Assembly (NCBI GenBank): GCA_964016885.1
Contig: OZ024747.1
Location: 60,016,001-60,080,000, forward strand
DNA: 64,000 nucleotides
Reading direction: 5' to 3'
Origin: Eledone cirrhosa
Taxonomy: Eukaryota
The notes under the pieces are model-generated. The model saw only the letters and a list, made by a program, of their open reading frames with translations. It had not been told where the DNA came from and did not search any database. The position numbers were made by a program, and so were the translations under genes. Shown piece by piece: positions 1,406-29,225 of this stretch (its first letter is position 1; each line of letters opens with the position of its first letter).

Positions 1406-2306
1406 GTTTATTGTGGTCAAGTCTGTGGCCTGTTACATGAGAGTCTCTCTCAGATGTTACTGAGTCATCAGACAAAAGATCAGAATAGGCAATTTCTTCA
1501 TGGTACTTCCATTAATATGTATTGAATAATATATATAACTACCAACAGTTAAAATACCTTATTTCCCACTTAATAGAATTGCCATACCTTAAACATGATC
1601 AGACTTTCAGATAGTCATCAACATTAAAATTTCCTAAGCAGTAGCCATTTTGCTTACTTTCATGTGTTTTTACACTTATGCTACACACACATTTAAAGAT
1701 TTTAAGTTTTAGCATTTGAATAGATGGATATATTATGTGTTTAGATAATAAGGGCTGAAACACTCCCTTGAATGGGGTTTCTTCTTTGAAGAACTTCTGT
1801 CTAGTTCTCCTGAGAGTTTCTTACTACTGTTTAACATATCATAATTGAGTAGATATTGGGAATTTTGTAATGGGCTTTCAGTAATCAAGGAAATCTAGAT
1901 GACTGATCATATTCTGATATGTTTATGAACATTTTTGCCTATAAGATATCACACGCTTTCCTCCTCCTGAATCTTTTTAATAATTGGCAATTTGATACTC
2001 AGAGTTAAGATTTGAGAAAATTCATCTTACAATAGATGTACTCTACTCTATGTATGCAAACAGTCACCAATCCATACACAGACGTCCATACATACACACA
2101 GACATATATAGAAATATATATATATAATATATGAAAAATAAATATATATATATACACATAAATATATAATGTGTGTATATTCCGGGTTGAAAGTTATTCC
2201 GGGTTGAATCAGAGGTAACCACAGTAAGTAAGATAGTCAATGCATAGCAGAGTATAACAGTTTTAATATAGAAGAGCTTCTACAGGACTAGAACTGTTTC
2301 ATTTGG

Positions 2307-2359
2307 GAGCTCCCTGATGATTTCTCACGAATGAAACGGTTCTAGTCCTGTAGATCTTC
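2307..2359 (+). ncRNA. Type I hammerhead ribozyme-like motif (HHR-1)
   Basis: GAGCTCC, CTGATGA (2314-2320), TTTCtcacGAAT, GAAA (2333-2336), CGG...CTG, then TA (GUA site 2350-2352). The 3' strand of stem I is decayed here, but the inverted copy at 2267-2303 reads GAAGCTC, which nearly pairs with GAGCTCC. Confidence 0.55.
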
Positions 2360-3980
2360 TATATATATATATATATCTATCTAATGTATATGTATATATA
2401 TAATGTATAATGTATATGTATGTAATGTATATATATAATGTAATGTATAATGTATATATATATATATAATGTATATATATGTATGTATATATAATGTATT
2501 TATATATATGTATATATATATATATAAATATATATATGTAATGTGTATATATATGTAATGTGTATATATATATATGTAATGTGTATATATATATATATGT
2601 AATGTGTATATATATATGTAATGTGAATATATATATATATATATATATATGTAATGTATATATGCAAAAGTTCTATTTAAAATTGTTGGGATACAACAAG
2701 TAAATATTTTTATAACTGATATAAAGCACTCGACAAGTATTTGGAGTAGATATACGATATTAATAAATGGAAACTATATTTATAAAACCATATTTATTTC
2801 ATTATACATATTTCACTATCCAGATGGCTTCCAAAAACAATGGTTGCATTTTAATAGGGTACGTCAAAGCTTATTTGTAAAACTGTTATATATTGTATTT
2901 TGTCTGATGAAGGCATACCATAATTTAATTTGGTATCCCTGAAATATGTGTAATGAAATAAATATGGTTTTATAAATATAGTTTCCATTTATTAATATCG
3001 TATGTAATGTATATATATATATGTAATGTGTATATATATATGTAATGTGTATATATATATATATATATATGTAATGTGTATATATATGTAATGTGTATAT
3101 ATATATATATGTAATGTATATATATATATATGTAATGTATATATATATATGTAATGTATATATATATGTAATGTGTATATATATATGTAGTGTATATATA
3201 TATGTAGTGTATATATATATATATATGTAATGTGTATATATATATATGTAATGTGTATATGTATATATATATATGTGTGTAATATATATATATGTATATA
3301 TATATATGTGTGTAATGTATATATATATGTATATATATATATATATATGTGTAATGTATATATATATGTGTATATATGTAATGTGTATATATGTAATGTA
3401 TATATATATATGTATATGTAATGTATATATATGTATATATGTAATATATAAGTATATATGTAATATATATGTATATATGTAATGTATATATGTATATATG
3501 TAATGTATATATATATATGTAATGTATATATATATATATATATATGTAATGTATATATATATATATATATATATATATATATATATGTAATGTATATATA
3601 TATATATGTATATATGTAATATATATGTATATATGTAATATATATGTATATATGTAATGTATATATGTAATATATATATATGTAATGTATATATATATGT
3701 ACATTACATATATATATACATGCATACACACACATACATATATAATGCATATATATATATATATATGTATAAAACATACATTCATATTTATATATGTGTG
3801 TGTACATATAGGTGTGTGTGTGAGTATATATATATATATATATACCTGTGTGTGTATATATATATGTATATAAATATGTGTGTATGTTTGTATGTATGTA
3901 TTTATGTATGTATATAATGTATGTATGTATATATATATGTATATAATGTATATATCTATATATATATGTATGTATGTAAA
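2360..3980. repeat. Compound (TA)n/GTAATG low-complexity arrays, interrupted at about 2665-3000
   Basis: TA runs punctuated by GTAATGT; these produce the Y/I/H-rich ORFs. Confidence 0.9.
2896..2960 (+). ncRNA. Type I hammerhead ribozyme-like motif (HHR-2)
   Basis: Stem I TATTTTGT (2896-2903) pairs with ATGAAATA (2953-2960). Core CTGATGA at 2904-2910. Stem II AGGcATACCA/TGGTATcCCT. GAAA at 2941-2944. Self-complementary stem III ATATGTGT. GUA site at 2950-2952. Confidence 0.7.
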
Positions 3981-4189
3981 ATTTCAAATTATCATTATGA
4001 AAGTTTTCAGATGCGAGAAGCTTAAGATTAATCAGCTTTACCTCCTTCTGTCATCTAAAGTGTCCCATGTCAATCATAGTTTACTGTGAATTTAACTTAA
4101 GTGCTACTGACGATTTTATTTTTACTTTTATTTTATTTCTTATATTTATATTGTTTTTCTCTGTGTAGTGGGTCTCTGGTTTTTCTTAC

Positions 4190-4207
4190 CTGGCATTTTT
4201 ACTTTTC
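4190..4207 (-). CDS. Candidate start-codon exon end of an antisense gene (ATG CCA G|GTAAGA)
   Basis: Minus strand reads ...ttcttttctctgaagGAAAAGTAAAAATGCCAG|gtaaga, with a strong donor and an AAAATG context. No homology support. Confidence 0.25.
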
Positions 4208-4987
4208 CTTCAGAGAAAAGAAAGAGGAATTGATGTAAGGCTGTTGTTGTGGTTGTTGTTGTTGCTGCTGTTTGTTGGTGCTGCTGTTTGTTTGTGTCCT
4301 TAAGTTGGTAGATCGAGAGACATATAGATAGGTAAATAGAGAGAGAGAGAGAGGGAGAAAGAAAGAGAGAGAGAGGGAAAGAGAAGGATGATGTTGTAAT
4401 TGACATTACAACTATCAACTTAATGGTTAAATCTGACAATATTGGCGCCTCTTTGACTGATAGCAATGCTCCGATAAACTTGTCAAAATCTTATTGATTT
4501 CCATTCCACCGAGATCATGTATTTTTGCTCTCTCTTTCTCTTTCTCTCTCTGTGTGTGTGTGGATGTATATATATATATATATATATATATATATATATA
4601 TACACACACACACACACAATACACATATATATATAGCCTGAAATTAATATGTATGTATGCATATTGTAATAAGTGGAAATCCTAAAGGAAGGAGAAAAAA
4701 TCGAATACTGTTTTAAAATGGAATAAAAAGAAATTTAAATATGTTAAGTAACATGACAATATATATATATATATATATATATATACACCTACACATATAT
4801 TATATATATATAATCTGTATATGTATATGTATATATATATTATATATATATTATATATATATATATAATATATATATATAATATATATATATAATATATA
4901 TATATATAATATATATATAATATATATATATAATATATATATATATAATATATATATATAATATATATATATTATATATATTATATG

Positions 4988-27239: not shown

Positions 27240-27610
27240 TTCTTCTTAAGACAGAGTCCTCAGACACTTTCTAGAAAGTCCTGCCAGAAGAACCTGCTGA
27301 CTCCAACTGACCTACCTGGATCCCTAAACAAGAACAACCAAACTCATGGAAGTTATCCAGCTATCTTGCTTATGTTCTACCCCTGGGTCTCCTGCCAGTA
27401 GGTTTTGCCCATAAAAATCTGTCCAGCTATTCTTTCTTTAGACATTCTAATTGCTTGTCCATAGTGTCGGAGTTGTGATTTCTCAATTCAGAGAAGCAGT
27501 GACTCTACCTGCATCAACTCCCTGATCTCCAAGCTACTCACTCCAAGTAATCTTACTCCACAGATTCATCTCAGAGGAAGACCATTTCAGCCAGTACCTA
27601 CCTTTATAAA
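27240..27610 (-). mobile_element. RTE (Rex3/Expander-like) family C fragment
   Basis: The minus strand decodes SLEIRELMQVESLLL*IEKSQLRHYGQAIRMSKERI...PTGRRPRGR with stops, followed by a (GAA)n tail. Confidence 0.7.
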
Positions 27611-28712
27611 CCCCAGATTGGGAACTCTTATTGTAATAAAACTCTTCTATAATAGTTCTGTTCTAACACAATACTGCTGGGTGAGTATTTGTGTATAATA
27701 TGACAATCTCTAATCTTTATCCTTTTGTTACCATAATTCTAACGGAAGAGACTGCCTATTATTATTTCCAAATAATTTTGAAAATAATAAAAAAATTTGG
27801 AATGATTCAGTAAAATGACTAACACTCCTTCCAGCGGGTGCTCTCTGGATACAGTTGCTTTTGACAGGAAGGACTGTTTGAGGACTCTGCCCCAATGACC
27901 CTCTCAAGAATAAGTGGGTGAAGAAGAAGACTGATGTATCATTAAGTTGGCGTGTGGAACATAGCTTAACTGAGGTTCTTATATAAAATTACAATGGAAG
28001 GTTTTCAGTTAAAAGCTTGGAAAGGTAGACATAAAATTATGGTTATTATAAACATTTTAAAATAAATATTTTATATCATAAAACGGAGGCAGATTCAGAT
28101 GGTTTGGTGTGAAAAGTTTTAATGCTGCAAAGAGTTGATTTAAAACAATGTCAAATGTGAAGATGTAAATCTGTCTAAAGTATCTCAAAATAGCAAGGAA
28201 CTCATCATTAAGTCTCTGGTATTGATAATGGAATGGTAATAATGCTTGACACAGAAAACAGCACTAATGTTTTTGTTTTACTTTTTACAGAGTAAACTAC
28301 TGATTAGAAGTCTTAAGATCAGTGTGTAGCATTAGCAGAACAGAAAGGTAGAATTATATGACTTGCCCCAGGAAATATTTCCTTGTGTTGATTGAAGATA
28401 AAAGAGGTCAAATCCAGTCACATTCCAGAAAACATCTCATTTTAAAATTTTTTTTATTTTTTAGTTTTTTTTTTGTTTTTAGATTTTTTGCTGGTGGCTT
28501 TTATTTATGTATTTATATATTTGGAGATTTTTACATTCCACGTAAATAATATTAGTTGTATATGGCCACAAAACTAACTTTATTGATATTTACTTAGTTC
28601 TTTATATGTTTAGATAAATCCATAATCCCATGGATTGTTCAGCATGCATGAAGCACCAACATGAAACATCTCGTCATTCCTGTCACTTCCCCAATATATA
28701 TATATATATATA

Positions 28713-29060
28713 TCATCATCATCATCATCATTTTATGTATGTTTTTCCATGCTTGCATGGGCGGGTTGGATGGGTCCTTTTCAGCACAGCATCTCTTCAC
28801 TTCCCGCGTTCCTTCGTCACCTCCTCTATGAGTCTCAGCAATTTTGAGGTCAGTTCTCTCCATGTCTGTCCAGGTTTTTCTTGGTGTACATCTTCTGTGG
28901 CTTCCTTCCACTGGGATTTCCTGGCACTTCTTCACTCAGTGATCATCATCCATGCACATCATATGTCCAAGCCAATGCAATCTTTTCTCTTCCACACCAT
29001 GTTGGATTCCTCTTAAACCCAGTTTCTCCCTCAATTCATCCTAGCTCTGCCTTTCTCTCC
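28713..29060 (-). mobile_element. Decayed RTE family A-like 3' fragment
   Basis: MKKCQEIPVEG...PRKTW and a (GAT)n tail. Confidence 0.8.
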
Positions 29061-29135
29061 ACAGACATATGTCTGCTGGCATGACAACTGGATGGTAATA
29101 CATGACCAGTGACATATCCCCATGATTGTATAACT

Positions 29136-29225
29136 ACACCTATAATTGTATGAGCATCTGATGAAGTCACATGCATAATCATGTAACAGAAACATATATC
29201 ATGTAATAAAACAATTATGGTGAAG
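29136..29225 (+). ncRNA. Degenerate type I hammerhead motif (HHR-5)
   Basis: CAT, CTGATGA (29158-29164), stem II ACATG/CATGT, GAAA (29189-29192), CATATA, TC, ATG. Distal stem I CACCTATAATTGT/ACAATTATGGTG. Confidence 0.5.

Follow-up and report, generated by a model that had tools for sequence, protein, structure and literature searches.

Type I hammerhead motifs with inverted partial copies, likely 3' ends of Penelope-like elements, in Eledone cirrhosa

Hammerhead motifs upstream of a carboxypeptidase exon

The window analysed here is a stretch of 64,000 nucleotides from Eledone cirrhosa (assembly GCA_964016885.1, contig OZ024747.1, positions 60,016,001 to 60,080,000). An exon of the cytosolic carboxypeptidase family, which we take to belong to CCP6/AGBL4, sets the + strand as the host sense strand, and upstream of it, likely within one long intron, lie five hammerhead motifs (Table 1). 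Four of the five intact motifs are sense to this exon and site 3 is antisense, in agreement with the first-pass annotation, which had described most of them as sense to the host pre-mRNA.

Table 1. Hammerhead motifs, inverted copies and neighbouring features, with positions in the window (cut positions, at N17, are predicted)
Feature	Positions	Strand	Remarks
Site 1, family A inverted copy (long arm)	2180..2303	-	Starts 22 nt before cut site
Site 1, type I hammerhead	2304..2364	+	Core 2314-2320, cut after 2352
Site 2, family B inverted copy	2666..2815	-	2752-2815 98% identical to 2940-3003
Site 2, hammerhead copy	2816..3003	+	Core 2904, cut after 2952
Site 3, family A copy	10307..10442	-	Core intact, 10433; cut after 10399
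Site 3, inverted copy (short arm)	10441..10496	+	Second hammerhead, decayed, GAAA box lost
MITE	10493..10721		Terminal inverted repeats, TTAA flanks; splits site 3 short arm
Site 4, family C inverted copy	11565..11881	-	94% identical to 12198-12510, ends in (TA)n
Family C main copy	11880..12632	+	704-bp ORF-free unit, pLTR-like partial tandem
Site 4, hammerhead	12120..12212	+	CUGAAGA core 12129, cut after 12203
Site 5, family B copy	29079..29395	+	No inverted arm; core 29158, cut after 29205; 5' limit approximate
Host exon	30491..30605	+	Internal, AG...GT; cytosolic carboxypeptidase family

Motifs were searched for with a relaxed type I descriptor (CUGANGA, stem II with an optional mismatch at 10.1-11.1, GAAA, stem III, NUH, stem I). 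CUGANGA occurs 24 times in the window, and five of these occurrences fitted, exactly the five cores claimed before. In 100 local dinucleotide shuffles the mean number of matches was 0.44 and the maximum three, a null that is somewhat flattering because the descriptor was loosened after a stricter first version had matched site 2 alone; six decoy cores under the same descriptor gave 0, 1, 0, 0, 0 and 2 matches. A scan of the window that allowed one core substitution and required strong stems gave zero extra sites.

The CUGANGA...GAAA...NUH core is intact at all five sites, while a sixth, decayed copy starting at 10441 fails. Stems I, II and III can form at the sites, with covariation, although stem II of site 3 has only 2 bp. 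The 10.1-11.1 position holds U.U at sites 1, 3 and 4, A.A at site 5 and an A-U pair at site 2, and the usual Watson-Crick G-C pair at none of the five; U.U is the best tolerated mismatch at this position and is found in nature (PMC3088659). At sites 1, 3, 4 and 5 stem III has 4-5 bp and is closed by a loop of 4-8 nt, so that they are not of the minimal type without helix III, which had been mentioned for Penelope-like terminal repeats and retrozymes.

Individually, site 1 has a 3-bp stem II, GAAA at 2333 and a 4-bp stem III with a CUAG loop; its stem I is damaged by a 3-nt deletion in the sense copy, while the inverted arm retains the 3' strand, with which eight of nine pairs form. Stem II of site 2 has 9 bp with one C.C mismatch and its 13-bp stem I is bulged; loop II of site 3 is shortened; site 4 combines a 5-bp stem II, carrying a long structured loop, with an ACCA/UGGU stem III; and stem I of site 5 has a distal 10-bp helix (29140-29149/29211-29220).

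The Infernal/Rfam check proposed in the first-pass annotation gave no hammerhead at the gathering score. For the whole window there was none among the best 150 of 401 matches, which are dominated by microsatellite matches to miRNA models; site 1 alone gave Hammerhead_3 at just 13 bits, below the gathering score, and site 5 alone no match. The hammerhead fold is the minimum-energy structure at none of the five sites. A type III topology, suggested by the Rfam alignment at site 1, was rejected: the sequence behind the triplet cannot close a stem I, and pairing with the arm extends across the core. An ORF starting from the core AUG, in the style of an anole element, was also rejected, because at sites 1, 2 and 5 the frame meets a stop within 3-11 codons. 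At the level of sequence, the analysis confirms the five motifs as real type I hammerhead-type folds with putative cut sites.

Repeat families and inverted arms

The motifs belong to three sequence families, A (sites 1 and 3), B (sites 2 and 5) and C (site 4), which bears out the earlier estimate of at least three unrelated families. The relatedness of sites 2 and 5 has a score of 43, reached by none of 300 shuffles, and their stems II differ by four compensatory changes (G-C/U-A, U-A/C-G, C-G/U-A and C-G/G-C) with the mismatch at an identical position; stem I of sites 1 and 3 has A-U in one and G-C in the other at equal distance from the core.

Families A and C are dispersed repeats. In run X1 the summed read depth is 210k-251k for family A and 0.5k-25k for family C, whereas single-copy flanks have about 8-11, giving rough depth ratios of 2-3x10^4 (site 3) and 10^2-3x10^3 (site 4). 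By read mapping, family A is abundant in a second organism too. At position 10397, in stem I, 99% of the X1 depth has the base restoring a U-A pair, and in X6 1540 loose-end reads run on into an intact core.

An upstream inverted arm is found at sites 1-4, as had been claimed for four sites; it is 5'-truncated and stands head-to-head with the main copy, and the 3' ends of the two are unequal. At all four sites the arm starts 5-35 nt upstream of the cut site. The description of these starts as lying at or near GAAA does not extend to site 3, where the arm begins at the CUGA core, nor to site 4, where the start is inside loop III, 5 nt upstream of the cut site. Alignment of arm and main copy gave 34 matches and two mismatches plus a 3-nt gap at site 1, 68 and three at site 2, 44 and 10 at site 3, and 302 and 18 at site 4, a divergence of 2-19%. 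The arm noted earlier at site 1 (2267-2303) is only the first part of an antisense copy that matches site 3 over 2199-2303 (78%) and runs about 100 nt beyond the cut site to a TA-rich flank near 2180. At site 2, positions 2666-2751, for which no homologue was seen, are presumably further family B 3' sequence up to the microsatellite. The MITE evidently entered the short arm of site 3 later, the arm resuming at 10722-10730.

Eight of the nine 3' ends adjoin a TA-rich microsatellite, the exception being the short arm of site 3, which meets a TG-rich tract. Site 1 ends at an internal TAT followed by (TA)n, and site 5 at (TA)n. The cut sites lie 92-419 nt (92 nt at site 3) from these microsatellite ends, which places the hammerhead in a 3' terminal repeat. 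A pLTR-like partial head-to-tail tandem is present at one of the five sites, site 4, where the unit is closed by a direct repeat (11880-11938 and 12584-12632).

These data bear on the trivial reading in which the hammerhead matches arose by chance and the palindromes represent fold-back DNA elements, local duplications or errors of assembly. The AT-rich sequence, the absent Rfam support and the relaxation of the descriptor speak in its favour, but the number of matches exceeds the shuffle maximum, the stems carry compensatory changes, and the arms have diverged, one of them being split by the later MITE. Moreover an independent contig matches 10695-10960 with zero differences, and the majority of family A does not include the inversion centre, the depth at 10445 being 428 versus about 250,000. 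This reading is thus largely refuted, and we regard it as extremely improbable.

Relation to Penelope-like elements and retrozymes

The type I hammerhead folds of the three families, two of which are shown to be dispersed, are in our opinion likely 3' ends (pseudo-LTRs, pLTRs) of Penelope-like elements (PLEs), probably of the Hydra clade or related to it; their insertion is the likely source of the inverted arm, as a by-product. The earlier view of ribozyme-bearing PLE-type ends with a Penelope-like inverted partial copy is supported by the repeat status and the insertion architecture. No GIY-YIG family match was found among the 214 ORFs of the window, a scan for PLE motifs was also empty, and the single weak RVT_1 match is part of another element. 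Exact family A patterns had no match in metagenome and viral contigs; a generic U.U/ACAG pattern found 63 metagenome loci, seven of them with both stems, none BLAST-related to the window elements and none with a convincing PLE motif set. As the window has no PLE protein and these contigs have no relatives, architecture and motif shape are the basis for the putative link to a PLE ORF. The ribozyme-bearing copies in the window are ORF-free, and only site 4 is a closed unit. The absent ORF need not mean non-autonomy, as had been supposed, since the Hydra-clade ribozyme sits in the 3' UTR (PMC8557442) and an autonomous element, when 5'-truncated, would likewise leave short copies that are ORF-free.

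A direct pLTR, an adjacent shorter inverted pLTR and a tail form the PLE layout given in the Fig. 2 legend of PMC8557442, and the same layout is known from Pen2a_Av (Arkhipova et al. 2013, PMC3846280), with pLTR sequences alone being mobilisable in trans. Our sites are similar to Pen2a_Av in having a direct and a shorter inverted pLTR head-to-head, with one end longer; however the extensions are about 85-120 nt here, against a 30-40 nt tail, and short TSDs are unreadable inside the microsatellites. With the Hydra clade of EN+ PLEs (Craig et al. 2021, PMC8557442) they share a type I hammerhead near the 3' end, (TA)n targets and an inverted 5'-truncated copy at the 5' end, as in Penelope-13_HM, whose inverted 5'-truncated copy gives a hammerhead on each strand (PMC8557442). 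File S2 of that study lists U.U at 10.1-11.1 in 14 of 25 Hydra-clade families and an AC-started stem III in all 25, nearly all targeting (TA)n; here U.U is present at sites 1, 3 and 4 and an AC-started stem III of 3-4 bp at sites 1, 3, 4 and 5. The Hydra-clade shape, with U.U compared across the families of that clade, fits sites 1, 3 and 4, site 5 partly, but not site 2, which like site 5 has no U.U. Other differences from the clade are that no ORF is attached that could carry its protein motifs (RWK, DKT and a CxCX5C linker, with no CCHH), that loop III exceeds the 1-3 nt listed for the Hydra families, and that site 4 combines a very large loop II with 300-420 nt of sequence 3' of its cut site. 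Site 4 and the octopus element Hydra-1_Obim have in common the CUGAAGA core, the ACCA/UGGU stem III and a GUU triplet, with no likeness beyond core and stem III when compared by eye, unaligned; short words of the window are absent from the PMC8557442 supplement. The assignment to the Hydra clade is soft, because U.U may occur in Neptune, Poseidon or Nematis hammerheads too and Neptune elements are also biased to microsatellites (PMC8557442).

Among PLE minimal hammerheads (Cervera and de la Pena 2014, PMC4209133) there are likewise dispersed single motifs, several families per genome, opposite-strand pairs 100-700 bp apart, and a long helix II, as in family B; S. mansoni carries dual hammerheads, one per strand. 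Our motifs differ by a true helix III and, where those have a G10.1-C11.1 pair with one extra 5' nucleotide, by a symmetric mismatch or an A-U pair at 10.1-11.1.

It is also conceivable, although unlikely, that the copies are monomers of true non-LTR retrozymes, protein-free units that are transcribed into self-cleaving multimers, close into circles and depend on PLE enzymes for retroposition. Metazoan non-LTR retrozymes (Cervera and de la Pena 2020, PMC7229834; Li et al. 2026, 10.64898/2026.07.22.740005) are, like our copies, protein-free, low-GC type I units linked to PLE pLTRs, and monomeric copies are common in Xenopus (10.64898/2026.07.22.740005). Site 4 consists of its ORF-free unit plus a partial second one, and family A has a high copy number, both of its core-intact copies beginning 9-10 nt upstream of the core. 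On the other hand, the window is without a tandem of two hammerhead-bearing units, the working definition in 10.64898/2026.07.22.740005, which speaks against the retrozyme class raised earlier; zero copies start at the cut site, and under either reading the inverted arm and the (TA)n ends would be marks of PLE insertion. A palindromic, dimer-type stem III, another earlier suggestion, is clear at site 1 (self-dimer energy -11.4 kcal/mol) and site 4 (-10.4 kcal/mol) but not at sites 2, 3 and 5, where energies are weak (-2.2 to -4.7).

Under the preferred explanation by PLE insertion, a PLE reverse transcriptase/GIY-YIG protein encoded elsewhere would nick (TA)n DNA and copy the 3' part of the element RNA, often starting at an internal UAU run. 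A second copy, made on the other strand or by self-priming, would halt inside the ribozyme, and head-to-head joining with 0-2 nt of microhomology would leave the shorter inverted arm and the unequal 3' ends. Since all four arms begin 5' of the scissile bond, their templates were likely uncut RNA; in vitro, one PLE used mainly unprocessed RNA as its template (PMC11167929). An origin of the arms by fold-back priming at stem I was rejected, as it predicts starts 3' of the cut site. The original role of the ribozyme would be to process the tandem precursor RNA of the element itself.

The combination of ribozyme and inverted arm has already been described for the PLE class and the find is likely mostly ordinary. 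If our reading is right, three hammerhead-bearing PLE-type families that Rfam misses are added to this genome, one of them very abundant; the openly accessible papers searched, a set outside Repbase, Dfam and subscription journals, do not describe these families and yielded just the Craig 2021 entry on an octopus Hydra element. According to PMC8557442, the way in which PLEs produce inverted copies and the purpose of their hammerhead are open questions. Five copies in one window settle neither, while a family of about 10^4 copies makes both testable by junction counts. A speculative and rather doubtful extension is that family A represents a SINE-like parasite, so far undescribed, of Hydra-clade PLEs. 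Measuring about 140 nt and starting at the outer edge of the hammerhead, it would number tens of thousands of copies in each of two or more species, prime at internal UAU runs on (TA)n, silence itself by head-to-head insertion either way and hence build up in introns. Were this true, the genome would offer a natural experiment of great size on how PLEs invert and on selection against or for self-cleavage in introns.

Masking of the ribozyme in the host transcript

The proposal that the antisense arm masks the ribozyme is supported by folding predictions. At the four arm-bearing sites, in order, the penalty for adopting the hammerhead fold is 48, 34, 49 and 25 kcal/mol with the arm and 12, 5, 21 and 9 without it, so that the arm is predicted to prevent the fold. 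In host pre-mRNA the arm would pair with the 3' half of the ribozyme, and intronic copies would be largely silent and decaying.

One could then imagine that the arm acts as a safety catch, sense-intronic ribozymes persisting mostly where an antisense arm upstream of them prevents the cut. This idea is compatible with PLE insertion but in our judgement improbable. An arm accompanies three of the four sense motifs, with the fold blocked by 25-48 kcal/mol; the host-sense copy at site 3 has lost the GAAA box that the antisense copy keeps; and there are the stem I deletion of site 1 and the A.A of the unmasked site 5. Against it, the sample is five motifs in one gene, four of five intact cores are sense, which is the reverse of avoidance, and PLE hammerheads are poor cutters in vitro (PMC4209133), leaving perhaps little to select against. 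Head-to-head inversion is moreover the usual PLE product whatever the genes, and masking needs no special cause, because a head-to-head pair puts the antisense arm first on either transcribed strand.

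Hammerhead motifs and their families

The first-pass annotation had placed five hammerhead motifs in the window, and a relaxed type I descriptor matched the same five, out of 24 CUGANGA words. Against these five, 100 local shuffles of the window averaged 0.44 matches and never exceeded 3, while decoy cores gave 0-2. A stricter first version of the descriptor matched site 2 alone, since the other four sites carry a mismatch at the first pair position of stem II (10.1-11.1), which is U.U at sites 1, 3 and 4 and A.A at site 5. The motifs were not recognised by Rfam, one of the checks that the annotation had proposed.

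At least three unrelated families had been claimed, and three were seen: family A (sites 1 and 3, 78% identical over 111 columns), family B (sites 2 and 5, distantly related with a score of 43 that 0 of 300 shuffles reached) and family C (site 4, without kin among the other sites). Covariation was evaluated in A and B with hand-set stem pairings and two copies per family. In family B the pairing of stem II is kept through four two-sided changes, and the two sites share the position of a mismatch; in family A, using the arm copy of site 1 and allowing a one-base bulge at site 3, stem I has an A-U pair in one site where the other has a G-C pair at equal distance from the core. Hammerhead-like folds with U.U at 10.1-11.1 were also observed at metagenome loci L024:793-834, L031:377-420 and L008/L023/L052, which are unrelated to the window elements.

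Features of the window (positions and strands)
Feature	Position	Strand	Remarks
Site 1	core 2314, N17 2352	+	family A
Site 2	core 2904, N17 2952	+	family B
Site 3	core 10433, N17 10399	-	family A
Site 4	core 12129, N17 12203	+	family C
Site 5	core 29158, N17 29205	+	family B
Exon	30491-30605	+	115 nt, AG/GT-bounded; Peptidase_M14 E 6e-4; cytosolic carboxypeptidase 5 structures E 1e-5
MITE	10493-10721; also 31084-31313, 14219-14455		about 229 bp, terminal inverted repeats, TTAA ends
Direct duplication	11474-11560 / 12623-12702		flanks site-4 element
Tandem array	48099-49932		39-bp base period; frames on each strand stay open for 640-650 codons
Decayed fragments	9308-9634, 22405-22986, 28639-28935, 42075-42755, 58285-58812, 63022-63830		RVT_1 match weak, at 63570-63830 only
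Minisatellite arrays	33585-34433, 5970-6750, 58989-59480		period about 48 bp, both orientations

Penelope-like structure and abundance of the elements

The four inverted arms described earlier are real and have diverged from the main copies, which carry the intact ribozyme. Each pair is head-to-head with one arm longer, a TA-rich microsatellite adjoins 8 of the 9 3' ends, and at site 4 a partial direct repeat closes a 704-bp unit. These traits correspond to the insertion structure published for Penelope-like elements (PLEs) in PMC8557442 and PMC3846280, and PMC4209133 describes hammerheads in PLE pseudo-LTRs, with pairs on opposite strands and low in vitro activity. In File S2 of PMC8557442, U.U at 10.1-11.1 is found in 14 of 25 Hydra-clade families and an AC-started stem III in all 25; one of these families resembles site 3 in that its inverted copy bears a second hammerhead, and an octopus member of the clade described in PMC8557442 shares core, stem III and triplet with site 4. 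Against this reading, family B lacks U.U, a feature compared here with the Hydra clade. The 214 ORFs of at least 45 aa, chosen from 280 in the window, yielded no PLE protein, and no relative turned up among metagenome and viral contigs. Motifs and arms are real, a known class explains them well, and the families are new; the 31 recently active Penelope-like families reported for octopus in PMC13282606 may already include A, B and C.

Read depth from four public runs was evaluated over 10290-12720, a stretch with sites 3 and 4 alone. In X1, the contig run, summed depth was 210,000-251,000 for family A and 500-25,000 for family C, whose ribozyme has 1,790, with about 8-11 in single-copy flanks; the ratios to the flanks, about 2-3x10^4 and 160-3,100 respectively, are rough and do not equal copy numbers. 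Family A was abundant in a second organism too (run X4), where family C was almost gone. About 99% of X1 depth carries, at 10397, the base with which stem I regains a U-A pair. In run X6, 1540 loose-end reads leave 10422 and pass through a longer loop II and the intact core to 9 nt of plausible stem I (over 30 letters, at an agreement of 0.58). Depth over the site-3 inversion centre is about 430, and this junction therefore lies outside the family A majority.

Absence of an ORF in copies of 140-350 nt proves nothing about autonomy, because the ribozyme of Hydra PLEs sits in the 3' UTR (PMC8557442). The chances that these are non-autonomous units are about even; the common start and high abundance of family A and the closed unit of site 4 point that way. 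Retrozymes, protein-free hammerhead-bearing units (PMC7229834), are defined in 10.64898/2026.07.22.740005 by two tandem hammerhead units, an arrangement absent from the window.

Proposed insertion steps and predicted masking

A PLE enzyme encoded elsewhere in the genome would nick (TA)n and copy the 3' part of the element, and a second, shorter copy would then be joined head-to-head to the first. For the PLE of PMC11167929, nicking and extension of both strands and internal starts are described. Counted upstream from the cut site, the inverted copies of sites 1-4 start at 22, 12, 35 and 5 nt, and none starts at the cut itself, so that their templates were likely uncut RNA, as also reported in vitro for that PLE. 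Both family A copies with an intact core start 9-10 nt upstream of it. An internal TAT at the microsatellite start is the stop point of three of the four short arms and of the site 4 main end, against a background of 5.5% of positions in element bodies. This post hoc count of five ends gives no more than a hint that priming uses pairing of UAU with (TA)n; if so, the elements would not begin in the non-homologous way described for the anole element.

Taken in isolation, sites 1-5 are predicted to need 12, 5, 21, 9 and 9 kcal/mol to be forced into the hammerhead fold; together with their arms, sites 1-4 would need 48, 34, 49 and 25 kcal/mol. This rise from 5-21 to 25-49 kcal/mol agrees with the proposal that the antisense arm would mask the ribozyme. 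Masking would follow from the geometry, since a head-to-head pair gives the antisense arm first from either strand. Selection for masking is possible but, with five sites, unsupported, and our literature search found nothing on point concerning selection for or against intronic sense hammerheads.

Host gene and other repeats

The window holds a lone cytosolic carboxypeptidase exon, with an intron apparently longer than 30 kb on either side. No motif of the neighbouring exons was found within the window, and all five sites are therefore probably in a single intron that exceeds 30 kb. Four intact motifs are sense to the exon and one is antisense, which bears out the mostly sense orientation first suggested.

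The repeat landscape would fit an octopus-like cephalopod. The MITE at 10493-10721, presumably piggyBac-like, ends sharply in the reads, and in two organisms its summed-depth ratio is about 1.5-2x10^5. The duplication flanking the site-4 element is at single-copy depth and possibly represents a long, old target duplication; its copies (about 80% identical) are more diverged than the arms of that element (94%). The decayed fragments look to us like Helitron helicase, RTE, CR1 and restriction-endonuclease-type non-LTR elements, and the minisatellite arrays are related to one another.
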